In this document: positions 1 through 38,759 of the stretch, in pieces
Position numbering within the stretch: position 1 is the stretch's first letter
How the letters are laid out: every line of letters starts with the position of its first letter
IMG/VR virus record: IMGVR_UViG_2706794681_000009
Direction: 5' to 3' (one strand)
Length of the DNA stretch: 38,759 nucleotides
DNA from: a virus
Lineage: Duplodnaviria; Heunggongvirae; Uroviricota; Caudoviricetes
Made by a program: the position numbers and the translations under genes
Notes under the pieces: generated by a model
Seen by the model: the letters and a program-made list of their open reading frames with translations, nothing else
Database searches by the model: none
Told to the model about the DNA's origin: nothing

Positions 1-121
1 TCGGTTTACGGGAAACGGTAAACAGGGCGGCGAATGCTCTGCCATCGGACGGCACCGCCGTTGCCGCGAATAGACTCGCCACCCCAAGAAATATTAATGG
101 GGTTCCCTTTGACGGGACGCA
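1..121. repeat. Left inverted repeat of invertible tail-fibre segment; positions 1-13 form the inner half of a gix-like site
   Basis: Reverse complement of 1-121 matches 1199-1319 with a single mismatch; window begins at the centre of the palindrome. Confidence 0.8.
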
Positions 122-362
122 GGACATAAACATCACTTCTGGTATAACACAGCAGGATGCGGATTCCCGATATATCCAGGATATCAGGCTGGGAGCAGAG
201 AACAGGCAGGTAATGTACGGTGGGGCATATTACTCTGCGTACGGTAATGTTATGGCAGGCCTGCAGATTGACAGTAAAGTTGATGCTTCAAACGATTTTA
301 TAGCATTCAGACCCCTGCAAAAATTAGTCGGAGGTACATGGATTACGGTATCTCAGTTATAA
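3..362 (+). CDS. Tail fibre protein, C-terminal variable segment (Sv), 5'-partial
   Basis: Frame open from window start to TAA at 360-362; encodes ANRLATPRNINGVPFDGTQDI crossover-type motif and GGTWITVSQL tip. Confidence 0.7.
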   Translation, partial: GLRETVNRAANALPSDGTAVAANRLATPRNINGVPFDGTQDINITSGITQQDADSRYIQDIRLGAENRQVMYGGAYYSAYGNVMAGLQIDSKVDASNDFIAFRPLQKLVGGTWITVSQL

Positions 363-413
363 ATAGTCAGTAAATAATATATTTTAAAACAGATTTATTT
401 CCAGGAGGATTTT

Positions 414-935
414 ATGGAACTAAAAAATATAACCCGTTATTATCCTGAAAATATGCCATATGGTAATAATGTTCAGTATTTCCAGAGTGAAGATGGTAAG
501 GATTTCTACGAATCCCTGCCATTATTCACCAAAAAATATAAACTTTGCATAACACCTGACAGCGGCGTTATCTGCTCAATATCACAGGACGCCTCGGCGC
601 TGTATCCTGCGGGGTTTTCTGTGGTTGAGGTCGATGAACTCCCTGAAGGCACGGATATTTCAGGAAACTGGAAGTTTGATAATGGCATAATCTCCCGTAT
701 TCCGGTTAACTACGCAAGAAAACTGGAAGCAATGCGCCAGTCATATCTTAATCAGGCATATGAAAAAATTAATGACTGGAGAACGGAGCTACAACTGGGC
801 ACCATCAGCGATGAAGACAGAGCAGCACTTACCCAATGGATGGCATACATCAGTCAGGTGAAGAAAATGGAACTACCCGCCATTAAAACAGAAGCTGAAT
901 TTAACGCCATTAAATGGCCTGAGCAGCCACAGTAA
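414..935 (+). CDS. Tail fibre assembly chaperone (Tfa/U family), 173 aa
   Basis: AGGAGG RBS 6 nt upstream of ATG; size, position directly after fibre tip, C-terminal ...AIKWPEQPQ resembling Tfa C-termini. Confidence 0.75.
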   Translation: MELKNITRYYPENMPYGNNVQYFQSEDGKDFYESLPLFTKKYKLCITPDSGVICSISQDASALYPAGFSVVEVDELPEGTDISGNWKFDNGIISRIPVNYARKLEAMRQSYLNQAYEKINDWRTELQLGTISDEDRAALTQWMAYISQVKKMELPAIKTEAEFNAIKWPEQPQ

Positions 936-939
936 TAAA

Positions 940-957
940 GAAGGCCGGAAGGCCTTC
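940..957. terminator. Bidirectional hairpin (GAAGGCC-GGAA-GGCCTTC) between convergent tfa and Sv-prime
   Basis: Perfect 7-bp stem with 4-nt loop located between two convergent stop codons. Confidence 0.45.
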
Positions 958-966
958 TGAATATCA

Positions 967-1317
967 TTATATACTTGCAGCCGTCACCCATGCTCCATTT
1001 AACAGATACTGCAACGGCCGGTAATACACGCCGCCGACGTTATCTGCCGTATTCTTACCGACATCCTGTACTTTAATTCCGGTAAGAACATTGCCGCCCC
1101 CCAGATTCAGATCCCAGCTTTCCCATGTTCCGGGCATATGTGCGGTCACCGACCCCAGTCTTATGGCGGTTACTGTTCCTGATGAGATAGTGATATCCTG
1201 CGTCCCGTCAAAGGGAACCCCATTAATATTTCTTGGGGTGGCGAGTCTATTCGCGGCAACGGCGGTGCCGTCCGATGGCAGGGCATTCGCCGCCCTGTTT
1301 ACCGTTTCCCGTAAACC
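967..1317 (-). CDS. Alternative tail fibre C-terminal segment (Sv-prime), expressed only after inversion
   Basis: Minus-strand frame continuous from the gix crossover; first ~40 codons identical to Sv (inverted repeat), then diverges, ending NGAWVTAASI. Confidence 0.6.
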   Translation of the reverse strand, partial: GLRETVNRAANALPSDGTAVAANRLATPRNINGVPFDGTQDITISSGTVTAIRLGSVTAHMPGTWESWDLNLGGGNVLTGIKVQDVGKNTADNVGGVYYRPLQYLLNGAWVTAASI

Positions 1318-1319
1318 GA
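1199..1319. repeat. Right inverted repeat of invertible segment
   Basis: Matches reverse complement of 1-121. Confidence 0.8.
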
Positions 1320-1331
1320 GGTTTTCAGGAA
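1306..1331. other. gix-like recombination site (gixR): TTCCCGTAAACCGAGGTTTTCAGGAA
   Basis: Imperfect 26-bp palindrome at the repeat boundary immediately upstream of gin, closely resembling gix/hix crossover sites. Confidence 0.6.
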
Positions 1332-1396
1332 AGCCAGGATTAACTCTGTTTTATTCCTCATGCGACAATTCCGGCTTTTTATAATAAGGAAATCGT

Positions 1397-1969
1397 ATGC
1401 TGATTGGGTATATCAGGGTGTCAACAAATGACCAGAATACGGCGCTACAAAGAAATGCGCTGGAATGTGCAGGATGTGAGCTGTTTTTCGAAGACAGAAT
1501 AAGCGGTAAGACAAGGGAGCGTCCCGGACTTAAACGCGCATTAAAGCGACTCCGGCCAGGGGATACCCTGCTGGTCTGGAAACTGGATCGCCTTGGACGC
1601 AGTATGCAGCACCTTGTCCTTTTAACAGAAGAACTCCGGCAACGCGGCGTTAACTTCCGCAGCATTACGGACAATATTGATACATCCACTCCCATGGGAC
1701 GTTTCTTTTTCCATATAATGGGCGCGCTGGCGGAAATGGAGCGGGAACTCATTATTGAACGTACACGCGCGGGTCTTGCTGCTGCCCGTGCTCAGGGGCG
1801 TCATGGCGGCAGACCTCAGAAACTGACAGAGAAAGAGCGGGAGCAAATCGCCCGTTTGCTGGCTAATGGCGAGTCCCGTAAACAAATCGCACTGATATTT
1901 GATATTGGCCTTTCCACCCTTTATCGTTATTTTCCTGCCTCACCAGCTCCGTCACCAAAAGTACCGTGA
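1397..1969 (+). CDS. gin: Gin DNA invertase (serine recombinase, Hin/Gin/Pin/Cin family), 190 aa
   Basis: MLIGYIRVSTNDQNTALQRNAL... N-terminus with catalytic Ser; near-identity in pattern to Mu Gin; TATAAT and AAGGA upstream. Confidence 0.9.
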   Translation: MLIGYIRVSTNDQNTALQRNALECAGCELFFEDRISGKTRERPGLKRALKRLRPGDTLLVWKLDRLGRSMQHLVLLTEELRQRGVNFRSITDNIDTSTPMGRFFFHIMGALAEMERELIIERTRAGLAAARAQGRHGGRPQKLTEKEREQIARLLANGESRKQIALIFDIGLSTLYRYFPASPAPSPKVP

Positions 1970-2054
1970 CGCTTTTTTGAATTTCCGCAAAACACATATT
2001 TTTCAGCGGTCGCTATTCTGACTCTGTTTAATTCAGAAACAGGCAGAAAAGACG

Positions 2055-4109
2055 ATGTCAGACTCCAAGTGGAAAATGCTCTCCGCCATGCCCGGAGAGT
2101 TTTCAGTCAAGGTTGCCGGTGGCACGGTGGCATTTATTGAAAGCCCTTTCCGCCCTTCGGGTAATAAAGGGGGGATCACCTTCGCAGACTGCGTGATCCG
2201 CTTCAGCACGAAAGAGCCATTATGGGTAATGCCGGTATCCGGTAATCCCAGTGCAGAAATCACCAGTTCAGGCGTGACTGGCATCATTCCAATCACATCT
2301 GACGTGGCCGGAACGCTCACGCCCTCCGACTGGAATGCACCGGATAACGCCGGGCCTTCCGGTAGCACGAATGGCAGCAGTTCAGAGCCGGAATATTACT
2401 TTGTTGTCATTCTCGCGGGTCAGTCAAATGGCATGGCCTACGGCGAGGGGCTGCCGTTACCGGATTCGTTTGACCGCCCGGACCCACGCATTAAGCAACT
2501 GGCACGCCGCAGTACGGTAACGCCCAACGGTACGTCGTGTACATACAACGACATCATTCCGGCAGACCACTGCCTGCATGATGTTCAGGATATGAGCGGG
2601 ATAAACCACCCGAAAGCTGATCTGGCAAAAGGCCAGTACGGGACTGTCGGTCAGGGGTTGCATATTGCCAAAAAACTGCTTCCCTATATCCCACAGAATG
2701 CCGGGATACTTCTGGTGCCCTGTTGTCGTGGCGGGTCAGCATTCACCACTGGAGCCGACGGCTCATTCAGTGAGGCCAGCGGTGCTTCCGCTGATTCTTC
2801 ACGCTGGGGGGCCGGTAAACCTCTGTATCAGGACCTGGTAAGCCGCACCAAAGTCGCGCTGGCGAAAAACCCGAAAAACAAACTTCTGGCTGTGGTCTGG
2901 ATGCAGGGAGAGGCAGACCTTGCCTCAGGAAGCCAGCAGCATAATAGTTTATTCACGGCCATGGTTCAGCAGTTCAGAACTGACCTGGCTCCGCTTGCTG
3001 CGCAGTGCGTGAGTGGAAATGCCACCACGGTGCCGTGGATTTGCGGTGATACCACGTATTACTGGAAAAACGCTGGCACCGATAAATATGAGGCAGTATA
3101 CGGTGGCTACAAAGGCAAGGAAGCACAGAAAATTTTCTTTGTACCGTTCCTGACGGATGAGAATGGACAGAGCACGCCAACGAATGCTCCGGCGGAAGAC
3201 CCGGATATTGTGGCTGTCGGGTATTACGGTGCAGCATCCCGAACCCAGGGCAGTTTTGTTTCGACACAGCGTGACAGCCATTTCAGCTCATGGGCACGCA
3301 GGGGCGTCATTTCAGACCGTCTGGCCTCAGCTATTATGCTCCATGCAGGGCGCACGGCTGAACTGATGCGTGGGCAGACCGTGACACCACCGGATGAGAA
3401 GCCGTCACCTGATACACCATCAAAACCGTCCACGCCACCCGCAGACACCACGACGATGAGTACGCTATTTGCTTACCGGGCATCTGAGTCTGAAGGACGG
3501 TTGACACCACAGGGTTGGGCTGCCGGAGGTGGCAAGGCTCAAATCGTGGATGATGCCGGAGCCAGCGGGGGTAAGGCAATGAAACTGACCAAGGAAACAG
3601 GAAGAGCCCCCTGGTACCTTGAGCATGATGCTGGTAATGGTGCGGACCTGCTGGGTAAAGGTGGTCTTGTCAGTTGTCGTTTTAAACTCGATGGCGCGCT
3701 TACGGCTAATCAGTACGCACTGGCGCTGTACTGGCCGGTTTCTGCCCTGCCGCAAGGGGTTACTCTGGAAGGAAATGCCGGTCATAACCTGCTGGCATCG
3801 TTCTACGTACAGAGCGATGCCACAGACCTTAACGTGATGTATCACAAAGGAAACACGGCGCAGAACACGAAGCTGGGGTCATTCGGCGCATTTAATAACG
3901 AATGGCATACGCTGGGCTTCCGTTTTGCCGGTAACAACAGTATTGAGGTGACGCCGGTCATTGATGGTAAGGACGGGACACCATTCATGCTGTCGCAGTC
4001 TCCGGTCGGCACGTTTACGGCAGACAAGTTGCGCGTGACCGATATCACTAAAAATGCGACTTACCCGGTACTGATTGACAGTATCGTGGTGGAAGTGAAT
4101 AACGCGTAA
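2055..4109 (+). CDS. SASA/SGNH-type carbohydrate O-acetylesterase (NanS-p-like) with Pro-rich linker and C-terminal lectin-like domain, 684 aa
   Basis: Motifs ILAGQSNGMAYGEG and VVWMQGEADLASG; linker PPDEKPSPDTPSKPSTPP; beta-rich C-terminal ~230 aa; no signal peptide. Confidence 0.6.
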   Translation: MSDSKWKMLSAMPGEFSVKVAGGTVAFIESPFRPSGNKGGITFADCVIRFSTKEPLWVMPVSGNPSAEITSSGVTGIIPITSDVAGTLTPSDWNAPDNAGPSGSTNGSSSEPEYYFVVILAGQSNGMAYGEGLPLPDSFDRPDPRIKQLARRSTVTPNGTSCTYNDIIPADHCLHDVQDMSGINHPKADLAKGQYGTVGQGLHIAKKLLPYIPQNAGILLVPCCRGGSAFTTGADGSFSEASGASADSSRWGAGKPLYQDLVSRTKVALAKNPKNKLLAVVWMQGEADLASGSQQHNSLFTAMVQQFRTDLAPLAAQCVSGNATTVPWICGDTTYYWKNAGTDKYEAVYGGYKGKEAQKIFFVPFLTDENGQSTPTNAPAEDPDIVAVGYYGAASRTQGSFVSTQRDSHFSSWARRGVISDRLASAIMLHAGRTAELMRGQTVTPPDEKPSPDTPSKPSTPPADTTTMSTLFAYRASESEGRLTPQGWAAGGGKAQIVDDAGASGGKAMKLTKETGRAPWYLEHDAGNGADLLGKGGLVSCRFKLDGALTANQYALALYWPVSALPQGVTLEGNAGHNLLASFYVQSDATDLNVMYHKGNTAQNTKLGSFGAFNNEWHTLGFRFAGNNSIEVTPVIDGKDGTPFMLSQSPVGTFTADKLRVTDITKNATYPVLIDSIVVEVNNA

Positions 4110-4253
4110 GCAGGATAAAAAAATGCCGCCGGTAAGGGAAAACAAGAAACCGGCGGCAAAAAGATCGTTATATCCAAAGCAAAAAATGCAGTGCACCTTT
4201 TTACCTAACAGATATTACCGGTGTCAACACCATGTCAATAATTGGGAGGGATA

Positions 4254-4436
4254 ATGACATTTTTACAGCTTATTTTATTGTATTTCTGCACGGCAGTATG
4301 TGCGTTATATCTGGTGAGTGGTGGTTATAAGGCCATCAGAAATTATGTTCGCCGCAAAATTGAGGACGCAGCAGCTGAAAAACTCAGTAAAACAGCGCAG
4401 GTAACTCCGCTCCCAAAAGACCCGACCCAGCCCTGA
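4254..4436 (+). CDS. Small predicted membrane protein (~60 aa, one N-terminal TM helix)
   Basis: GGGAGGG RBS 4-10 nt upstream of ATG at 4254; hydrophobic FLQLILLYFCTAVCALYLV segment. Confidence 0.4.
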   Translation: MTFLQLILLYFCTAVCALYLVSGGYKAIRNYVRRKIEDAAAEKLSKTAQVTPLPKDPTQP

Positions 4437-4471
4437 TTGCAGGGCTTTATTCCCGCATAAGGAGGATATAC

Positions 4472-4726
4472 ATGCCAGAAATTAAAGGCACCGTCACTGA
4501 AGACCTGGTAAAACAGGCACTGTATTCCGGTGAAGTAAATAAGTTGCTGAAAGCGCAGGTCCGCAAGGATTTTGAGGCACAAATCGACACTTACGTTGAT
4601 GAAGTGCTGGCAAAACTTATTGGGCCAGCAGTTGCGGCCAGTGATGCTGATAATGAGCCGAAAACCGACGCGCAGCCAGAGCAACCAGACCCGGCTCAGC
4701 CCGGAACTGACAGTACCATGATGTAA
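4472..4726 (+). CDS. Hypothetical protein, 84 aa, acidic Pro-rich tail
   Basis: AAGGAGG RBS 6 nt upstream of ATG. Confidence 0.45.
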   Translation: MPEIKGTVTEDLVKQALYSGEVNKLLKAQVRKDFEAQIDTYVDEVLAKLIGPAVAASDADNEPKTDAQPEQPDPAQPGTDSTMM

Positions 4727-4893
4727 CAATACAAACCGGTGGTGTCCTCTGCCGGTTTGACACTAATGAAAACATCTTTGCCGCTATCCAGCCATATGTA
4801 ATCGCTGGATAGTATTTCGTATTCAGAAATATAGCTGCTTATGGAGCAGTCAATCCTGCTTCCCCATCCGGGCAGGCAAATGAACCGGTATCA

Positions 4894-5187
4894 TTAGTCC
4901 GATTCACGCTTTTGTAGAATCGTTCCCAGAATGCTATACAGCTCATTAGCCTGTTGCTCCATCATTGAGACGGAGGCTATACGGTGCAAAGTGATTTCAG
5001 GAGGTGGCACACCTCCATCTTCTTGCTGTGGAGGAAAAACATAAGATTTAATAAAAAAGTTGAAGCATATGAACTCTCCCGCACTCGAACTGTATTTGCA
5101 GGCATCTGAATAATCGGAAAAATAATCATTATAGATTTCCGCATTTTCAATCATTTTTCGATTTCTCGTCGTTACATGATTGTCCAT
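4894..5187 (-). CDS. Hypothetical protein, 97 aa, AT-rich gene divergent from com-mom
   Basis: AAGAGG RBS upstream; only long ORF in an AT-rich block. Confidence 0.35.
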   Translation of the reverse strand: MDNHVTTRNRKMIENAEIYNDYFSDYSDACKYSSSAGEFICFNFFIKSYVFPPQQEDGGVPPPEITLHRIASVSMMEQQANELYSILGTILQKRESD

Positions 5188-5310
5188 AGCAGCCTCTTAC
5201 GCTGGCAATTAACCAATTGACTTCTATAAATTAGTTGATTTGTTTGCTTTGCGGTATTCAAATGTACAATCATTCAGCACTTATGCGTTACAGCACCGTT
5301 TAAAATTAGT

Positions 5311-5396
5311 GATCAAACTCATAAATTTTCGCTAATGACATTTCGTGTTATTTGTTGTATCAATTAAATAAATCAAATCGATCGTTTTTGTCGATC
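5311..5396 (+). promoter_or_regulatory. mom upstream regulatory region with three GATC (Dam) sites
   Basis: GATC at 5311, 5380 and 5393, the last two within the palindrome AATCGATCG-N-CGATCGATT, just upstream of com. Confidence 0.5.
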
Positions 5397-5443
5397 GATT
5401 GAGTGATAAAGATATCAACAACAAAGCAGGAGGTTATGCGGCC

Positions 5444-5644
5444 ATGTATCGAAACATACGGTGCCGACATTGTAACAAGCTACTGGCACGAGCCAGCTTC
5501 AGTTATCTGGAAGTTAAATGTCCGCGCTGTAAAACCCTCAATCAAATCACATCTCAGAGCGCCACAGAGCACCCCACATACACAAGGAAATCCTGTCGTG
5601 GGGAACAGAAAGCAAGTTACATCCCGTATCATCAGCACGCCTGA
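5444..5644 (+). CDS. com: Com, zinc-finger translational activator of mom, 66 aa
   Basis: CRHCNKLL...CPRCKT zinc-finger pattern as in Mu Com; AGGAGG RBS 9 nt upstream; overlaps start of mom frame. Confidence 0.75.
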
Positions 5645-6335
5645 ACTTATTCACTATAACGACAATATCGTCGGTTATGGCTCCCGTGAGTTACGGGTTG
5701 AGACAATAAGTTGCTGGCTGGCCCGGCTGGTCGTCGTCAATAAACATTACAGCCATCGTTTCGTAAATAATTCCTACCTTCATCTGGGCATATTTTCAGA
5801 ACGGGAGCTGGTTGGCGTAATGCAATGGGGTTATGCCCTTAATCCAAACAATGGTGCACGCGTCGTAACTGGCACGCAGAACCGCGAATATATGGAGCTT
5901 AACCGGTTATGGCTGCATGACTGTATGCCGAGAAACTCCGAATCAAGGGCAATCAGTTACGCGCTCAAACTAATCAGACAACTTTATCCGCAGGTGCAGT
6001 GGGTTCAGTCGTTTGCAGATGAGCGTTGTGGCTGTCTTGGTGTCGTGTACCAGGCAAGCAATTTTGATTATGTAGGCAGTCATGAAACAACATTCTATGA
6101 ACTTGATGGCGAGTGGTATCACGAGATTTGCAAGAATGCAATCAAACGAGGAGGACAGCGAGGTGAACATCTGCGGGCTAATATCGACAGAGCCAGTGTT
6201 CATAAATTCCGTCAGTTTCGTTACATCCGGTTTCTGGACAAGAGAGCCAGAAAACGCCTTAACACAAAGCTATTCAAAGTCCAGCCTTACCCAAAACCAC
6301 AAACAGTTAAAACTGGTTTGAAAGAGAGTGAATGA
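5598..6335 (+). CDS. mom: Mom DNA-modification (anti-restriction) protein; start codon uncertain (GTG at 5598 proposed)
   Basis: Long frame overlapping com 3' end, position at phage right end after com; no ATG in frame near com stop, AAGGA precedes GTG 5598. Confidence 0.55.
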
Positions 6336-6407
6336 ACGCTTAAAAACTCATTCTAAAACTCAAAAGAAAAGCGCCGATTTAGTATCAAATAAGTTGCGTA
6401 TCGGCGT

Positions 6408-6657
6408 NNNNNNNNNNNNNNNNNNNNNNNNNNNNNNNNNNNNNNNNNNNNNNNNNNNNNNNNNNNNNNNNNNNNNNNNNNNNNNNNNNNNNNNNNNNNN
6501 NNNNNNNNNNNNNNNNNNNNNNNNNNNNNNNNNNNNNNNNNNNNNNNNNNNNNNNNNNNNNNNNNNNNNNNNNNNNNNNNNNNNNNNNNNNNNNNNNNNN
6601 NNNNNNNNNNNNNNNNNNNNNNNNNNNNNNNNNNNNNNNNNNNNNNNNNNNNNNNNN
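6408..6657. other. Assembly gap (run of 250 N)
   Basis: Literal N characters. Confidence 1.
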
Positions 6658-7039
6658 TCGCCAGGGCATTAACGTCAGCGGGACCAAGACTGTTTTTTGT
6701 GGCAAGCGTCCCCAGACCAAGATAACCACGGGCCAGACGCTGGGCCTCCGCACCGGCATCAGCAATTTCTTTCAGGTTATTTTTCCGGGAAAAGGCATTC
6801 GCAGCGATAATGGCTTTAATGGACAGCGTAAGCTGGTTTAACTGCGCCTTATCCGGCTGAATACTGGCTTCAGCCAGAATATTCAGCAGTTCGGCCTGGA
6901 GAATATTCAGCCAGTCCTGACCAATCCAGCTGATACCTTTTTGTCCGTCACCTTCGGTAAACCAGGTGGTGGTATTACTCTGCGCCGGTGCCAGCGCAGG
7001 CATATTCGCCACGCCGGAATTATTATCAACATGAAACAT
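6658..7039 (-). CDS. Tail fibre protein, N-terminal constant part, 3'-truncated by gap
   Basis: Starts MFHVDNNSGVANMPALAPAQ..., overlaps stop of upstream baseplate gene (TAATG); runs into N gap. Confidence 0.6.
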
Positions 7040-7599
7040 TAAATAGTCTCCTCTTCATGGCTGTTTGCATAAACGTAAATAAACGTCTGCCATGCAGGCT
7101 TATAACGGTTCAGAATACATTCCAGCGCACCGCCTTCATAAATACGCAGCGGCGTGAGAATATCATCCAGCACATTCATATTCCGGTAGCCGGTTTCACT
7201 GTTAATCGTGACAATACTGACCCACTGCGAATCCGGTGAGGGCTGAATGTCAATCTGATAACCAAACTCCGCCGCAAACCGGATATAAAATTCACGGTTC
7301 AGCGAGGGCTTCATCCGGTATTTATTTCCGGCATAACGCTGTCGCTCCGTGAGGGTGGCTCCGGCCATATCACACTCGGGAAGCCCGAGATAACGCTCCC
7401 AGTCTTCCAGCAGCAGGCGCGACGTGTCAGGGAAACGCTCGGCAAGCAGCTGTTTACCCGTCCAGGATACACGCGCTGTCGAATGACTGAGGCCCAGACA
7501 TAATGATGCCAGTACGGATGACGGACGCTTGTCCCATGCCAGCCCGTCAGGCAGTAACTGCAACAGGGCGCGCTGATGCGGGGTCAGGGTTACAGCCAT
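7039..7599 (-). CDS. Baseplate/tail protein (Mu gp48-like, YmfQ/DUF2313-like)
   Basis: Synteny between baseplate J-like gene and tail fibre; 186 aa. Confidence 0.55.
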   Translation of the reverse strand: MAVTLTPHQRALLQLLPDGLAWDKRPSSVLASLCLGLSHSTARVSWTGKQLLAERFPDTSRLLLEDWERYLGLPECDMAGATLTERQRYAGNKYRMKPSLNREFYIRFAAEFGYQIDIQPSPDSQWVSIVTINSETGYRNMNVLDDILTPLRIYEGGALECILNRYKPAWQTFIYVYANSHEEETI

Positions 7600-9716: not shown

Positions 9717-10830
9717 AGCTGATCCCCTGTTTTTTCATCTGCTGGCGAATAAAGGCATCAACATCGTCACCGGAACCACCCCGGCCCTTACTGTCCGGCT
9801 CTGCCGGAACGATAAAGCCGTCACGCGGTGCCAGTACCAGCCGGGTGACTTCCCCGTTATGTTCATCAAGTAAAAACTCCACCTGACAGACCAGCAGTTC
9901 AGTCTGTTCTATACCGAAACGCAGGGCTGAAACACCGGTCAGCAGATTGACATCCCATAACCGGCCATCATCCCGGAACCAGCCACGCACGGTGGCAGAA
10001 AACCGTTCTGAACGGGCAATCGCACGGCGCATTTCACGCAGGGCACGCTGCCGTGCACCGGTGGTGTCTGTCTGTTGATCGGCGAGGATGATTTTCGACC
10101 GGTAGCGGCCGATCTGCTCATCACTGATGACGCCCACAGGTGCTGCCAGACGGGCGGCGGATTCGCTGTCTCCCCGTTTGCCACCACCGCGCCCGTGTCC
10201 CCGGACACGGTATTCGCTGTATCGTCCTCGCCAGTCCGTGTTGTAATCGGCATCAAGCAGGTTATCTCCCAGCACCAGTCTGTCCGTCTGCTGGCTTCCT
10301 GCCTGGGTGAACACCAGATCGCCGTCAGCATTACTGGTCACCAGCACCCCGCGATGCCGGGCAGCACGGGTCAGCGCATCCGCCACGGTTTCTGAGTTTT
10401 CCAGCGTAAAAGAGCTGAAGGGGCGTGCAGCCGTGTCGTCGTTAACCTGCCAGCGCACGGCTATCCCGAAGGGCGCACATAAATCTGCGGCAATCTGTGC
10501 CAGCGTCCGGTTGCGCCACTGGCTGCCGGGATGGATGGCGGCACAGTCCACCAGGTCGCCGGTTTTATCCCGACCGCTGATGCTGATCTGATGACGGGTT
10601 GCACTGATCCGCTGACTGACCTGATCCAGCCAGCCACTGATGACCGTCTGCCCGTTAATTCTGAGCGTCAGGGACTGACCGGTTCGCAGGGCTGAGGGGA
10701 TGCGCTCACCGGGCAGCATCAGCCCCAGTTCAAACGACCCGGCCAGATGCTCCAGCGAGCGACGGACGCTGACCGTCAGCCAGCCGGAAAAAATACTGCC
10801 ACCGATATACAGTTCAATCCTGCTGCTCAC
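9706..10830 (-). CDS. Tail/baseplate hub protein (Mu gp44-like)
   Basis: 374 aa; synteny after DNA circularisation protein. Confidence 0.6.
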   Translation of the reverse strand: MSSRIELYIGGSIFSGWLTVSVRRSLEHLAGSFELGLMLPGERIPSALRTGQSLTLRINGQTVISGWLDQVSQRISATRHQISISGRDKTGDLVDCAAIHPGSQWRNRTLAQIAADLCAPFGIAVRWQVNDDTAARPFSSFTLENSETVADALTRAARHRGVLVTSNADGDLVFTQAGSQQTDRLVLGDNLLDADYNTDWRGRYSEYRVRGHGRGGGKRGDSESAARLAAPVGVISDEQIGRYRSKIILADQQTDTTGARQRALREMRRAIARSERFSATVRGWFRDDGRLWDVNLLTGVSALRFGIEQTELLVCQVEFLLDEHNGEVTRLVLAPRDGFIVPAEPDSKGRGGSGDDVDAFIRQQMKKQGISFDE

Positions 10831-21103: not shown

Positions 21104-21224
21104 ATTGCCTCCGCATAAAGGATGAATATAAAATAAACAGGCGGTCAGTGTACGCTTAACTGGTAAAGTCGGTGCCTGCCTCCGGGTGGATCATGTATGC
21201 GGGTTCGACCCCCGCCACTGACCG

Positions 21225-34143: not shown

Positions 34144-34371
34144 TTAGCTGACTTGTTTCGCACCAACAGAACGGCATATTCCGCTGTAAACTTCTGTCGC
34201 ACCTTCGCGATCAAGTCCGGCAGATATCACCATTCGTGTGCGGTCATTAAATTCAAAAAGTAAATCGCCACATTCTTTATTTTCGGCCAGTGAAATCACC
34301 TTCACGTTATCGAAATTAACCAGGTAAAAGCGTCCGTAAATATCAGGAATATTAAATACCGCCATAATCAC
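34144..34371 (-). CDS. Hypothetical early protein, 75 aa
   Basis: ORF directly downstream of B. Confidence 0.35.
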   Translation of the reverse strand: MIMAVFNIPDIYGRFYLVNFDNVKVISLAENKECGDLLFEFNDRTRMVISAGLDREGATEVYSGICRSVGAKQVS

Positions 34372-35309
34372 ACCTGTGAGAGTAATTCAGGGTTGGTATA
34401 AACCTCTTTAAAGGCCGCATTAATATGTTTTTCTGTCAGCGCCGCGCCTTCACCGCTGGCGGTGAGCCACGCCTGGTTAAGCGTATGTGTCAGAACGCGT
34501 AACGCTCCCGGCTTTTCAGCGATAGCCTGCATGACGGCCAGCTCGGCCTCACCACTGATCCCCCACGCCATGGCAATGGCCAGCACATCCGCCTTTTTGG
34601 CCTTGCGAAGTTGTTTTGTACGGGCAAGACGGCTGAACAGGCGCGATAAATCATCAAAGGCGCGGCGTCCACCTTTAAACAATCCGCGCGGGTTACCAAT
34701 AAGCACCATCCCGATCCCCGTGGCGTCCTGAATTGCCCGGAGTTGCTCCAGACCGTCAATACCAAGATGATCCGCCTCATCCACAATCACCAGTCCACGC
34801 GTTCCCATCAGGCGACGGCGGATGGCGCGGGATAATGCCCCTTTGTTCGCGCGGGTGTAATCAATCCCCAGCGCATCGGCCAGCTCCAGCAGACACTCCG
34901 TGACGCTGGAGTGCGCGGGTGACAGGGTGATCATCCAGGTGTTTGGTTGCTCCTGGCAGTAATTACGGGCAGTGGCCGTTTTACCCACACCCGGTACGCC
35001 CACAATAACGTTAATACAGCCCATCAGGCGAACCGCCTGAAACAGTGCGCGCAGCTCCTGGACTGTCTGAGTTTCCACAAACTGCGGCGGTTCCGGCAGT
35101 GCGCTTTGTTTATTCCAGTTCTCATACCAGGAGCGCAGGGAAGCAGCCACAGCAGCGTTATCGCCTTTATATTTTCCCTTACGGAAAGCCGATAATGTGC
35201 CGTCGGAAATTCCCGCCTCTCTGGCGATGGCATACTGCGTCAGTACGCCGCCATCAATAAGTTCATCAATGGTCTTGATTACATCGTTAATATCGGTCAT
35301 ATTATTCAC
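34368..35309 (-). CDS. B: MuB-like AAA+ ATPase, transposition target-DNA activator
   Basis: 313 aa; N-terminal HTH, Walker A GVPGVGKT, Walker B LVIVDEAD. Confidence 0.85.
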   Translation of the reverse strand: MNNMTDINDVIKTIDELIDGGVLTQYAIAREAGISDGTLSAFRKGKYKGDNAAVAASLRSWYENWNKQSALPEPPQFVETQTVQELRALFQAVRLMGCINVIVGVPGVGKTATARNYCQEQPNTWMITLSPAHSSVTECLLELADALGIDYTRANKGALSRAIRRRLMGTRGLVIVDEADHLGIDGLEQLRAIQDATGIGMVLIGNPRGLFKGGRRAFDDLSRLFSRLARTKQLRKAKKADVLAIAMAWGISGEAELAVMQAIAEKPGALRVLTHTLNQAWLTASGEGAALTEKHINAAFKEVYTNPELLSQV

Positions 35310-35382: not shown

Positions 35383-37470
35383 TCAGGCCAGCGGATCACT
35401 TTCTTTTAATTTCGCTTCGAGCAGTTGCAATCCCCGCTGGAAATTACGCTCGTATTCTTCATCAGGTTCATCGTCAGCGACCGGTTGCTGAACGGTCACC
35501 GTATTACCCACAGGGCGGTATATGTTTTCCAGCCAGGGCTCCTGCGGCTTGTGCTCCAGCACGTTGACAACCTCATCCTCGGCATCACGGATTTTTTCCT
35601 CTGCGCGTTTACGCATGCCTTTAAGGCGCTGCTGCTGTTTGTAGTATTCCGCGCTGACAGGGAAGGCTTCGCGTTTATTGCCGTCCCATACCGCCTCGCA
35701 AATCACGCTGCCATCCGGGCGGCGCACGGTAATTCGTTCGGCATCATGAATGTCATAGCTGATAAGTACCTTACGGCCATGCTCGTCACGCAGCTCGGGC
35801 GCGTAGTAAATATTATTCAGCCAGCGTATTTCACAGCGTCTTACAGGGCGCTCCACCATCGGCCGGAACATATCCCGCAGTTCAACATCGGACAGCCATT
35901 CAATTTCCGTGTCCTCTTCCGCCAGGCGTTTTTTTCTGAACTCCGCCGGGCTGTAATGTTTACCGTTCGGCTTCATGGGTAATTCATCGTGCGGCCGGTT
36001 GTTGTACCACTCAACACCGTCACGAATGGCATCAATCAGTTCAGACCAGGACGGTAAATCACGCATCGCTGACTGCTGCCGGGCGTTCAGCCGTTTGCCC
36101 TGTTGCAGGGCACTGAATGCCGAGCGTAAATCGCGGTTGGTTTTACGTAACGTCTCGCGATCTGCTCCTTTCCCGAAATAGGTGCGGTATTTACGGGCTA
36201 TGCGCATCGGTAATGTGCGGTTAAGCCGTTCGATAATGCCCCGTCCCTGCGGATTACCGGCAATCCCTGTCGGGTGATTAATCCCCAGTCGTGGCAGTAT
36301 CCCCACAATCTCCTTATCCAGGACGTCGGCGGTTTCCCCGGAGCCATTATCCGAGTAATACAGAAACGGTTTGCCATGATGGCGAATACCGTGCTGTATG
36401 GCACCGGCTACGGCGAAAACATTTTCAGCCAGGTCAAGGCTCCAGCCCACCACAAAGCGCGTGCCACCGTCGATAACAAAGGTCACTTCCGGTGCGAATG
36501 GCCGCCCGTGAACCGGGTGCGCGCATTTCAGCTTCATGCCGTGACCGTCACCAATCCAGACATAATTCACCGGCATTCTGGACCAGTCGCGGCGCGTGAA
36601 TCCCTCAAGCTGACGGTATTCACTGCCAGTTACCCGGCCTTTTTGTTTCACCACTTCCGGCAGTTTCTTCATTGCGCGGCGAATGGTGTCATAAGAGGGC
36701 ATGATATCGAGCATATAAGGCTCATCAGCGTGCCGGTGCTGCCATTCAGCAACAAAATCCTCGTAAGCCTCGGTCATTGGTCGGCCGTTTGACTGGCGAT
36801 ACTGCGCCAGAAATTCGGGCAGCCAGTTAATATCTTCGGCTTTTATTTCCTGGCGTTTACCCGGTGCCAGTAAAAGCAGGCGTTCAGCGGCGTTCTGTGC
36901 CTTGTTAAAGGCCGCAATCCAGCGTTTCAGCGTGATTTCACTCAACGCGCGGCTGTTTCCCTTTTTGGCGTTCGCCGTCTCAACCATTGCCACAATGCGC
37001 TCGTCCAGTTGTGATCGTGCCAGGCTGTTAACGAGGAACCGGATAGCTTTAGCGCAGCTGAAACCGGGTTGTTGCGTGAATTTCAGCACCTCACTGACGA
37101 TCGCAATGCGTGCGTCTGCCACCTGGCGCTGGTTTTCAGTCAGGGCATTGAGGCGTTCGACCATCAGTTGTGGTGATCCGCGATATGCCTCCACCGCATC
37201 AACCACGGCAGACGAGCGTCTGGCCTTTGTCACCACCGGAGCCGGTGATTCATCGGCTTTTTGCGTCATCAGTTGCAGGGCATAACGTTCGCGTAATGCC
37301 TGCTGTGTCACTTCAGGTAAACAGTCAATGCTGTATTCAAAACCTTTAGCGCCTTTCTTGCGGCGTCTGCTGGTTTCGCTGGTTGCATACTTCCTGATTG
37401 AATAGCGAACGCCTTGCTCCGTTCCCGGCATCCCCGGTAATCCAACCAGTTCTTTAACTGAAGCAAACAT
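35383..37470 (-). CDS. A: MuA-like DDE transposase
   Basis: 695 aa; N-terminal DNA-binding region and central DDE core; position between ner and B. Confidence 0.9.
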   Translation of the reverse strand: MFASVKELVGLPGMPGTEQGVRYSIRKYATSETSRRRKKGAKGFEYSIDCLPEVTQQALRERYALQLMTQKADESPAPVVTKARRSSAVVDAVEAYRGSPQLMVERLNALTENQRQVADARIAIVSEVLKFTQQPGFSCAKAIRFLVNSLARSQLDERIVAMVETANAKKGNSRALSEITLKRWIAAFNKAQNAAERLLLLAPGKRQEIKAEDINWLPEFLAQYRQSNGRPMTEAYEDFVAEWQHRHADEPYMLDIMPSYDTIRRAMKKLPEVVKQKGRVTGSEYRQLEGFTRRDWSRMPVNYVWIGDGHGMKLKCAHPVHGRPFAPEVTFVIDGGTRFVVGWSLDLAENVFAVAGAIQHGIRHHGKPFLYYSDNGSGETADVLDKEIVGILPRLGINHPTGIAGNPQGRGIIERLNRTLPMRIARKYRTYFGKGADRETLRKTNRDLRSAFSALQQGKRLNARQQSAMRDLPSWSELIDAIRDGVEWYNNRPHDELPMKPNGKHYSPAEFRKKRLAEEDTEIEWLSDVELRDMFRPMVERPVRRCEIRWLNNIYYAPELRDEHGRKVLISYDIHDAERITVRRPDGSVICEAVWDGNKREAFPVSAEYYKQQQRLKGMRKRAEEKIRDAEDEVVNVLEHKPQEPWLENIYRPVGNTVTVQQPVADDEPDEEYERNFQRGLQLLEAKLKESDPLA

Positions 37471-37888: not shown

Positions 37889-38434
37889 ATGAACAAGCAA
37901 ACAACAACATCTCTTTCTTTTCCTGGTGGTAGAAAAGAAAGCATTGCTGAGCGTCTGAAAAGGCTGATTGGCTCCCGCAGCGTCAGAGCTGCAGCAAGAG
38001 ATTGGGGGCTTTCATTTTCAACACTAAACAATTATCTGTCTCGTGGCACTGAGCCATCCTTAAGTGTCGCCCTTCAGATTGCGTCTATCGAAGGAGTAAG
38101 TGTTGAGTGGCTATGTGGATTCAGTGATGCATCACAAGTGAATCGGTGTGAGATCAAGGAAAATCAAGATGAAAGCAAGAAGATAATTATGACGATTATC
38201 AGCGCACTTGATGAAAAAGACTTAGAGCAGCTATCGAAAAATTTGGTTCTGAATGGAGCCAAGTACTTAGCTCGGTTGTTAGAGCCTGAAAATCAAGATC
38301 TAATCCGCTTAGAAGGAAGGAAAAGAATAGCTGCATTACAGCTTGAAGGTATGTCTGACGAACGCGTCAGAGAGATTTTGGAAGAAACTGAGAGAAGTCG
38401 CAAATCTAACGCGGTAGAACCAAAAGCGGGTTAA
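37889..38434 (+). CDS. c: Repressor c-like lysogeny regulator
   Basis: 181 aa, N-terminal HTH (LSFSTLNNYLSRG...), divergent from ner at phage left end. Confidence 0.6.
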   Translation: MNKQTTTSLSFPGGRKESIAERLKRLIGSRSVRAAARDWGLSFSTLNNYLSRGTEPSLSVALQIASIEGVSVEWLCGFSDASQVNRCEIKENQDESKKIIMTIISALDEKDLEQLSKNLVLNGAKYLARLLEPENQDLIRLEGRKRIAALQLEGMSDERVREILEETERSRKSNAVEPKAG

Positions 38435-38508: not shown

Positions 38509-38670
38509 GTATCAAATGAGTTGCCGATTTTATAATAAATGACTAATTATTGCACAATCGGTATCAAATAGACCTTATCCGCACATCTAGCCATCACCTG
38601 TTTTATTTCAGTATCTTACAGGTGATTTCACCTCCTTTCACTAAACCCCTTGTCGGTATCAAATGATTCA
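38509..38670. repeat. Phage left-end region with three transposase-binding-like repeats (consensus CATTTGATACCG on minus strand)
   Basis: Copies at 38509-38519, 38561-38570, 38656-38666; terminal TTCA-3' (5'-TGAA on minus strand) at 38670. Confidence 0.5.
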
Positions 38671-38759
38671 CCTGGTTATATGTCGCCAGTCGATACCTTC
38701 CAGCAGCATCGCCAGCTGCGCCTGTGTAAGGAACACTTTGCCATCACGGGCTGACGGCC
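38671..38759 (-). CDS. Flanking host-like ORF fragment, 3' end, apparently interrupted by the phage terminus
   Basis: Minus-strand frame open to window edge (...ARDGKVFLTQAQLAMLLEGIDWRHITR) ending in TGA formed by the phage terminal nucleotides. Confidence 0.3.

Follow-up and report, generated by a model that had tools for sequence, protein, structure and literature searches.

A viral stretch of 38,759 nt (hereafter, the window) carries a Mu-like tail-fibre gene whose 5′ part runs into a gap on one strand and whose 3′ part lies at the far edge of the sequence on the other, which raises the question of whether the arm between them is truly inverted or was placed in the wrong orientation during scaffolding. 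The window is composed of two contigs, A (1-6407) and B (6658-38759), linked by 250 N (Table 1). An earlier note on this DNA had described the fibre 5′ part (7039-6658, minus strand) entering the gap, the 3′ end of mom followed by a phage-end-like repeat on the plus strand to the left of it, and the fibre 3′ part with a gix site at position 1, also on the plus strand. These elements were confirmed far beyond chance: an open 127-codon N-terminus extends up to the gap, a Pfam Mom match precedes a GTATCAAAT repeat at 6382, and a 119-codon C-terminus (3-362) follows a gix core at 1-2, the chance of a contig starting on one given dinucleotide in a window of 38.8 kb being roughly 1 in 20,000. A tRNA scan of the window returned none.

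Table 1. Features of the window in scaffold coordinates.
Feature	Position	Strand	Basis or remark
gixL, central TC (1-2) and inner half-site GGTTTACGGGAA (3-14)	1-14	+	contig A starts on crossover core
Inverted repeat, left arm (partner arm 1178-1319)	1-142	none	142 nt, 94% complementary
Sv, variable 3′ part of S, 119 codons + stop	3-362	+	without 5′ part in contig A
U-like tail-fibre assembly protein	414-935	+	Pfam Caudo_TAP, E 5e-19
Sv′, alternative variable 3′ part of S, 116 codons + stop	967-1317	-	used when segment flipped
gixR, complete 26-bp crossover site, TTCCCGTAAACC GA GGTTTTCAGGAA	1306-1331	+	
gin-type serine invertase, intact, 190 aa	1397-1969	+	Resolvase E 2e-51, HTH_7 E 5e-15
Accessory module between gin and com	2055-4726	+	Pfam; RefSeq annotation of 99.9%-identical DNA
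SASA esterase/DUF6645 protein, 684 aa	2055-4109	+	accessory module
DUF1378	4254-4436	+	accessory module
DUF826	4472-4726	+	accessory module
com	5444-5644	+	Pfam Zn_ribbon_Com, E 8e-13
mom	5598-6335	+	Pfam Mom, E 8e-78
Innermost right-end repeat, GTATCAAAT motif	6382-6407	+	contig A ends here
Scaffold gap, 250 N	6408-6657	none	sole N run in window
Sc, constant 5′ part of S, 127 codons	6658-7039	-	cut by gap 147 bp before gixL
Rest of Mu-like prophage on B, baseplate/tail/head/lysis/Mor/Gam to MuB, MuA, ner	7039-38434	-	annotation of 99.4%-identical HH35
MuB	34368-35309	-	Phage-MuB_C, 310 aa, on loci with identical repressor
MuA	35383-37470	-	HTH_Tnp_Mu_1 + Mu-transpos_C, 695 aa, on loci with identical repressor
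Repressor	37889-38434	+	
Left-end repeats, GTATCAAA at 38509, 38561, 38656	38509-38680	+	polarity same as right-end repeat at 6382
Host flank, IS66-family tnpB fragment	38681-38759	-	scaffold ends inside

The left part of contig A has the make-up of an invertible segment. The outer half-site of gixL, TTATCGATAACG, is absent from the window and present in homologues, which read TTATCGATAACG-TC-GGTTTACGGGAA; with this half supplied from homologues only, gixL and gixR form two 26-bp inverted crossover sites with the same central dinucleotide, and they have the form of those listed in PMC4134206 (Table 3). The arms of the inverted repeat, mismatched at position 38 and at 125-140 only, are exact for the 37 nt beside the core and again for 86 nt farther inside, and they bound a G-type segment of 1319 bp. 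On the other side of the gixL core the possible neighbours differ from the first base, reading ...AACG on the Sc side and ...AACC on the gin side. Beside the segment lies a serine recombinase that combines a resolvase catalytic domain with a C-terminal HTH, and in which the YIRVSTNDQ motif with the catalytic Ser is visible. Both orientations of the segment occur among near-identical prophages, that of the window being shared by DLI.5a, TOE17, L039 and L043 and the opposite one being found in HH35, L015, L019, L022, L037 and L040. A search with a 30-nt gix/arm pattern yielded 16 loci in viral_contigs, 10 in metagenome_contigs and 0 in genome_contigs.

Both C-termini encoded in this segment are in frame with the constant N-terminal part of S. 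Joining Sc to Sv through the missing 147 bp, which are identical in DLI.5a and HH35, restores an intact S of 296 aa that is identical to the annotated RefSeq CDS of DLI.5a, and the fusion of Sc with Sv′ gives an open product of 293 aa, of which 290 residues are identical to the HH35 CDS. The junction of Sc, the 147 bp and the gix arm is unbroken in 227 of the 229 genomes that have it.

The arrangement was then compared with 17 contiguous homologues, namely eight complete E. coli genomes (HH35, PO06021, 600029, OZ547136, JE86-ST05, AST198, DLI.5a and TOE17), two phage records (LC727895 and LC727881), and three viral and four metagenome contigs (L015, L019, L022, L037, L039, L040 and L043). In all 17 the gin-mom side of contig A lies on the strand opposite to that of B, and position 1 is joined to 6658 via the same 147-bp spacer; the order of the scaffold was seen in none. 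The references thus agree with each other and disagree with the scaffold (17 vs 0), as is found when a contig has been misoriented. Taken separately, each contig is collinear with complete genomes: A matches HH35 at 99.94% identity over 1196-6407 and has a best match of 99.8% in ecoli_genomes, and B matches HH35 at 99.4% over 32 kb. Only their relative strand is opposite there. Each block keeps its internal order in finished references and the disagreement comes down to the N gap, which again is the signature of an orientation error. It had been proposed that the Mu order is obtained only by reverse-complementing 1-6407 and joining its gix end to the fibre gene, and the homologues are arranged in exactly this way.

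The polarity of the phage ends points in the same direction. The end motif GTATCAAA occurs five times in the window, always on the plus strand, so that the att ends of the scaffold are direct. In a transposable phage the two prophage ends are inverted and cannot point the same way; inverted transposase-binding end repeats, lacking in the scaffold, are present in every contiguous homologue, and their loss here is itself a sign of an orientation error. At the left end, a MuA-type transposase and a MuB ATPase lie beside the repressor/ner region, and the terminus, ...CCTGGTTATA, is at 38680. We fixed the termini by comparing at least 10 different host flanks, which follow ...GCGCTATA and ...GGTTATA as expected for fixed termini at varied host sites, in place of a target duplication; a clean 5-bp duplication was not found in HH35, whose flanks GCGTA/CGTAG share only CGTA, with a 1-nt offset. 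Outside the left terminus, the sequence 38681-38759 is 100% identical to 10,446 places in 3,260 genomes (median 2 copies per genome, up to 25), and insertion in this multicopy IS66 tnpB, not transposition heterogeneity, accounts for the outer end of the scaffold.

As regards the points at which the contigs broke, the earlier note had placed them at the invertible site and at the prophage end, and this stands in part. Contig A does start on the gixL core; B ends 147 bp short of it, and the outer end of A lies not at the prophage terminus but 56 bp inside the right end, these 56 bp being missing before ...GCGCTATA. We found no cause for B stopping 147 bp before gix or for A stopping 56 bp before the terminus. 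The missing 147 bp had been considered as a genomic repeat that could break B at 6658, and this was rejected, the stretch being generally single-copy (median 1 place per genome, maximum 6). The break at the gix core, by contrast with these two, recurs in independent assemblies, in agreement with the claim of a break at the invertible site: 105 blocks from other assemblies contain the core-truncated 119-aa product, of which 102 lie on contigs shorter than 2 kb, three contigs span exactly 1319 bp from core to core, one or more of these from a Logan assembly, and some SPAdes-style NODE contigs start exactly at the gix core. Spurious contigs are known to arise from invertible prophage tail-fibre segments of E. 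coli, whose orientation is mixed within one culture (PMC4134206), and a Mu prophage of EPEC is mixed in clonal cultures, where the edges of the inversion give read pairs that map to the same strand (PMC4272514).

Taken together, the data suggest, with a probability of about 0.86, that a single ordinary Mu-like E. coli prophage (~38.6 kb), inserted in an IS66-family tnpB, is represented in the window by a draft scaffold of two contigs, of which A is misoriented; for the source strain we infer the arrangement from the homologues and from parsimony. In the orientation of B, the real order would start with the left IS66 part, the missing 56 bp of the right end and reverse-complemented A (mom, com, the esterase module, gin, gixR, the G segment and the gixL core), and it would continue with the missing 147 bp of S, B from 6658 to 38680 and the right IS66 part. 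The expected junction of the right terminus with IS66 would read ...GCGCTATA followed directly by CGACAGCCTAAGCGG. During assembly, the graph would branch at the gixL core because the two possible neighbours first differ there, either since the culture held both G orientations, gin being intact, or through collapse of the inverted repeat (exact for 37 nt); judged from sequence alone, a population mixed by G orientation or transposition and a plain repeat collapse would look the same. Short pieces between branch points would then have been dropped and replaced by N. The simplest cause of the wrong orientation may be misleading read pairs across gixL, coming from G-flipped molecules or from placement on the other arm. 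We regard this step as a candidate only, because a scaffolder that checks distances should reject links implying a 5-kb overlap.

Could the given orientation be real, with a 6.4-kb right arm truly inverted beside a truncated S in the lysogen? Such an inversion might arise if Gin recombined gixL with a secondary gix-like site past the right end, or through aberrant intramolecular (self-targeted Mu-type) transposition of the right end into the G arm; its breakpoints would indeed fall at or near sites of rearranging enzymes (position 1 on the gix core, ~6407 at the right end), gin is intact, and the missing 56 + 147 = 203 bp would fit in the 250-bp gap with 47 bp to spare. However, this order is seen in 0 of the 17 contiguous homologues, and under it S would lack a C-terminus and the att ends would be direct repeats. 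Furthermore, no gix-like site was found in 2.5 kb of IS66 on either side of the insertion point, where the closest match, 16/26, equals the random background in the window, and the transpositional route is opposed by the target immunity of Mu, as Mu-type elements avoid self-insertion. A real inversion would also need extra, unseen sequence before position 1, whereas flipping A closes all open ends with known sequence. We therefore consider it extremely improbable, and the judgement that a wrong relative orientation is likelier than a large inversion is borne out by the 17 homologues, the restored 296-aa S and the direct att ends.

It is also very improbable that the genome contains two Mu-like elements related to each other, such as a full prophage plus a deletion derivative of the DLI.5a and TOE17 kind, and that A and B derive from different ones, the join itself being false. 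The tail-fibre region is present two to six times in some E. coli genomes, deleted derivatives keeping G-gin-mom do exist, and the breaks at 6658 and 6407, which have no visible local cause, would fit points of divergence between copies. Yet the full-length HH35 prophage is the best match of both A (99.94%, 1196-6407) and B, gin is intact in A and frameshifted in the deleted derivatives, most genomes with the phage have one copy (median 1 place), and A plus B add up to precisely one whole prophage (38,633 bp, against 38,626 bp in HH35). A further alternative concerns only the cause of the break within the misoriented scaffold, namely a sample clonal for G orientation in which the core break comes purely from the inverted repeat; this we hold to be somewhat unlikely. 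The exact arms (37 nt beside the core, 86 nt further in) would suffice to branch a short-k graph or to confuse read placement, and core-to-core contigs of 1319 bp also occur in a Logan assembly, where k = 31. SPAdes, however, normally uses a k of 55 or more, at which a 37-nt repeat alone would not cause a break, and NODE contigs start at the core all the same. The intact gin and the two G orientations among near-identical prophages likewise speak against clonality, mixed orientations being the rule with active invertases (PMC4134206; PMC4272514).

What looks like a split and reversed tail-fibre region is thus an artefact of draft assembly, and the rearrangement holds no new biology. Read literally, the scaffold shows direct att ends, a 6.4-kb inversion that is false, a tail-fibre gene cut short and a fibre C-terminus left as an orphan, from which annotation and comparative pipelines could call the prophage defective or rearranged. 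The gix cores are recurrent contig ends, the truncated product being found in more than 100 assemblies, and these recurrent ends together with the exact 1319-bp pieces make such breaks recognisable and automatically repairable.

A comparable case is E. coli EC958, in which flipping of a tail-fibre segment by an invertase during growth gave discrepant and spurious contigs, with crossover sites of like form (TTATCGAATACCTC GGTTTACGAGAA in EC958, TTATCGATAACGTC GGTTTACGGGAA here; PMC4134206). There, long reads yielded extra whole contigs for the alternative allele, whereas here the break at the core lies in a scaffold of short contigs, one of which was flipped; a mixture of orientations in the present sample is putative. 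The paired-end 'funnel' described for inversions that coexist in one culture, among them that of a Mu prophage of EPEC E2348/69, in which plus/plus or minus/minus pairs give a false orientation signal, offers a mechanism that could apply here, although in that work inversions were detected against a finished reference and scaffolding errors are not described (PMC4272514).

Among invertible systems, the locus resembles the G segment of Mu with Gin and gix, as well as Cin/cix of P1 and Pin of e14, in having a serine invertase beside a segment with inverted 26-bp sites and a 2-bp core. As in Mu, inversion exchanges the C-terminus of S fused to a constant N-terminal part, and com-mom stand at the right end in the same gene order (PMC3575834). 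DNA identity of the prophage to Mu and SfMu is nevertheless negligible, and the segment is 1.3 kb long here compared to 3 kb in Mu. It differs from that of Mu also in having a single assembly gene (U), Sv′ being without one, and an inverted repeat of 142 nt, and a 3.4-kb esterase module stands between gin and com. Finally, the ends of Mu are TG...CA, and those of the prophage described here are TATA...TATA.

The window contains a single run of N, at 6408-6657 and exactly 250 N long, and it is therefore composed of contig A (1-6407) and contig B (6658-38759). Read on the minus strand, B is a Mu-like prophage with 99.4% identity over 32 kb to one in E. coli HH35, for which RefSeq gives the order repressor, ner, MuA transposase, MuB ATPase, Gam, Mor, lysis, head, tail, baseplate and tail fibre; the Pfam domains HTH_Tnp_Mu_1, Mu-transpos_C and Phage-MuB_C were confirmed in loci with the identical repressor. 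The tail-fibre gene S is read leftwards from B into the gap, and the sole candidates for its continuation, the alternative 3′ parts Sv and Sv′, lie 6.4 kb off at the far end of A. Furthermore, the end motif GTATCAAA occurs in five copies, of which one (6382) belongs to the right end, three (38509, 38561 and 38656) belong to the left end and one is internal, and because all of them are on the plus strand the two prophage ends, as scaffolded, point in the same direction. The ends of a transposable phage must be inverted. The conflict between A and B is evident without reference sequences.

Features of the tail-fibre switch and accessory genes in contig A, and the fibre gene end of contig B
Feature	Position	Strand	Remark
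Sv, tail-fibre C-terminus	3-362	+	119 codons
U, assembly gene	414-935	+	Caudo_TAP
Sv′, second fibre C-terminus	967-1317	-	alternative 3′ part
Complete 26-bp crossover site	1306-1331	+	TTCCCGTAAACC GA GGTTTTCAGGAA
Invertase, intact	1397-1969	+	Resolvase+HTH_7
684-aa SASA/DUF6645 esterase, then DUF1378 and DUF826 ORFs	within 2055-4726	+	between gin and com
com	5444-5644	+	
mom	5598-6335	+	
Sc, tail-fibre N-terminus	7039-6658	-	last gene of B; open, 127 codons, enters gap

The strands of A and B are opposite in six complete E. coli genomes (HH35, PO06021, 600029, OZ547136, JE86-ST05 and AST198), where position 1 of A and position 6658 of B are in every case exactly 147 bp apart. The same arrangement was observed in the E. 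coli prophages of DLI.5a and TOE17, in two Stx-phage records with an inserted Mu-like phage, and in three IMG/VR contigs and four metagenome contigs spanning both blocks, so that the gin-mom side is opposite to B in 17 of 17 contiguous sequences and the order of the scaffold is found in 0 of 17. Of the 229 complete genomes with any match to the junction of Sc, the 147 bp and a gix arm, 227 have it in one piece, and the 147 bp are identical between DLI.5a and HH35. Joining the reverse complement of 7039-6658 to the 147 bp and to 1-362 gave an open S of 296 aa, identical to the annotated DLI.5a CDS, and joining Sc to the other arm gave an S′ of 293 aa, identical at 290/293 positions to the HH35 CDS. 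The reconstructed prophage measures 38,633 bp, compared to 38,626 bp in HH35. The earlier note had held that the tail-fibre gene is split by the N gap with A reversed, and that the reverse complement of 1-6407 should be joined to it by its gix end; the 17 homologues and the intact 296-aa S bear this out, and each element that it listed was found in its place. Its observation is thus confirmed and its interpretation supported with corrections: the prophage "rearrangement" is a scaffolding artefact and not a biological feature.

The start of the window had also been assigned to the gix crossover, and indeed the left crossover site has its central dinucleotide, TC, at bases 1-2, followed by its inner half GGTTTACGGGAA. 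In homologues the left crossover reads TTATCGATAACG-TC-GGTTTACGGGAA and the gin-side one, reverse-complemented, TTCCTGAAAACC-TC-GGTTTACGGGAA. Outward from the invertible G segment, the two possible neighbours diverge at the base just before TC, and this position is therefore a branch point of the assembly graph, at which contig A starts. The inverted repeat of 142 nt (1-142 versus 1178-1319, 94% complementary) has no mismatch in the 37 nt adjoining the core nor in another 86 nt, and gin is intact in the window; the branch could be due either to the presence of both G orientations in the sequenced DNA or to repeat collapse, two causes that are inseparable by sequence alone. Invertible segments have been found mixed in single E. 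coli cultures, with spurious contigs in EC958 (PMC4134206), and same-strand read pairs were obtained at the inversion edges of a Mu prophage in EPEC E2348/69 (PMC4272514). The break at the gix core is recurrent, as 105 blocks of the public collection contain the core-starting 119-aa product, on contigs < 2 kb in 102 cases; contigs L010, L011 and L012 run from core to core over exactly 1319 bp, and L003 and L006-L009 also start on TC.

The claim that the contigs broke at the invertible site and at the prophage end holds for the start of A; it does not for the other ends facing these sites, with B stopping 147 bp before the gix core and A lacking the final 56 bp of the right end. No local cause was found for the stop of A or B, and the 147 bp are single-copy in most genomes. 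The left terminus of the prophage was placed at 38680 (...CCTGGTTATA) and the right terminus at ...GCGCTATA, each from at least 10 different host flanks. Positions 38681-38759, the final 79 bp, match an IS66-family tnpB at 100% identity, and comparison with an intact copy fixes the insertion point, 37 bp from the tnpB 3′ end. That stretch is matched at 10,446 places, spread over 3,260 complete E. coli genomes (median 2, up to 25 per genome), and this tnpB insertion is found in none of the complete E. coli genomes of the collection. Since the far scaffold end lies within a repeat, it can be explained by the multicopy tnpB without recourse to transposition heterogeneity. The termini read 5′-TATAACC...GCGCTATA-3′ (window 38670-38680; HH35 locus L001 1636-1641; right ends in L002 and L030-L033), and the HH35 flanks, GCGTA and CGTAG, form no clean 5-bp duplication. 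The metagenome contig L037 (OKCX01000538.1) ends at 7252 precisely on the right terminus ...GCGCTATA, as heterogeneous flanks in that sample would lead one to expect.

The corrected order would be IS66-left, 56 bp (TTTTCAGCGGTATCAAATGAAATGCAAATCGGTATCAAAAAAATCGCCGCGCTATA, reverse-complemented), the reverse complement of 1-6407, 147 bp (AGGATCAG...ATCGATAACG) and 6658-38759, and the junction of the right terminus with IS66 would read GCGCTATA directly followed by CGACAGCCTAAGCGG. When the G segment is flipped, which is the case in HH35, the stretch 1-1319 of A is in forward orientation immediately left of B. Read pairs from flipped molecules would signal A as collinear with B, and the same signal would come from reads of arm 1 (1-142), in its 86-nt exact part, if the aligner placed them on arm 2 (1178-1319); a scaffolder disregarding the implied distance would then emit A forward, gap and B, as in the window. 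The flip may have originated from such misleading reads. The length of the gap, 250 N, disagrees with the 147 bp truly belonging between the contigs.

A genuine inversion of the right arm in the source strain is very improbable, as it would leave S truncated and the prophage ends direct, would require unseen sequence at both sides and has no precedent among the homologues (0/17), and the IS66 element offers no gix-like partner, its best match of 16/26 being background. Several prophage copies are present in some genomes, and A and B might thus derive from two different ones; however, the same full-length prophage is closest to both contigs, gin is intact in the window, as opposed to the deleted derivatives, and A and B sum to exactly one genome, which makes a mixed origin quite unlikely.

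The system underlying the scaffolding artefact belongs to a known kind, the Gin/gix-type tail-fibre switch, here in a Mu-like prophage, with invertase domains, paired 26-bp sites with identical core, both orientations in nature and alternative C-termini in frame. Compared to Mu, the window prophage has a segment of 1.3 kb with a single assembly gene, an inverted repeat of 142 nt and termini TATA...TATA instead of the TG...CA of Mu; in addition, an esterase module separates gin from com, a position at which Mu has nothing. The G segment (414-1317) is asymmetric, with a Caudo_TAP gene after Sv and no assembly gene of its own for Sv′; in the flipped state of HH35 the sole assembly gene is directed away from the tail operon. 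Parts of the esterase module, whose 684-aa protein has a sialate-esterase (SASA) domain, match P88-like phage DNA at 76%, and the module (2055-4726) is reminiscent of the NanS-p esterase module known from lambdoid Stx phages. DLI.5a (L002 7397-7968) and TOE17 (L033 8935-9506) carry internally deleted derivatives of the window prophage with gin annotated as frameshifted, in which the G segment is in the Sv-U orientation and apparently frozen. RefSeq annotates a "tRNA-OTHER" between the virion morphogenesis and minor head genes of the HH35 prophage (L001 22726-22805, about 21138-21217 in the window), and ARAGORN found no tRNA anywhere in the window. There are 2,797 blocks with a protein identical to the repressor (37889-38434, 181 aa), and for 996 of these the longest carrying contig is 20-50 kb, which would fit many drafts isolating the prophage as a contig of ~32 kb, from the left end to the G segment, as here.
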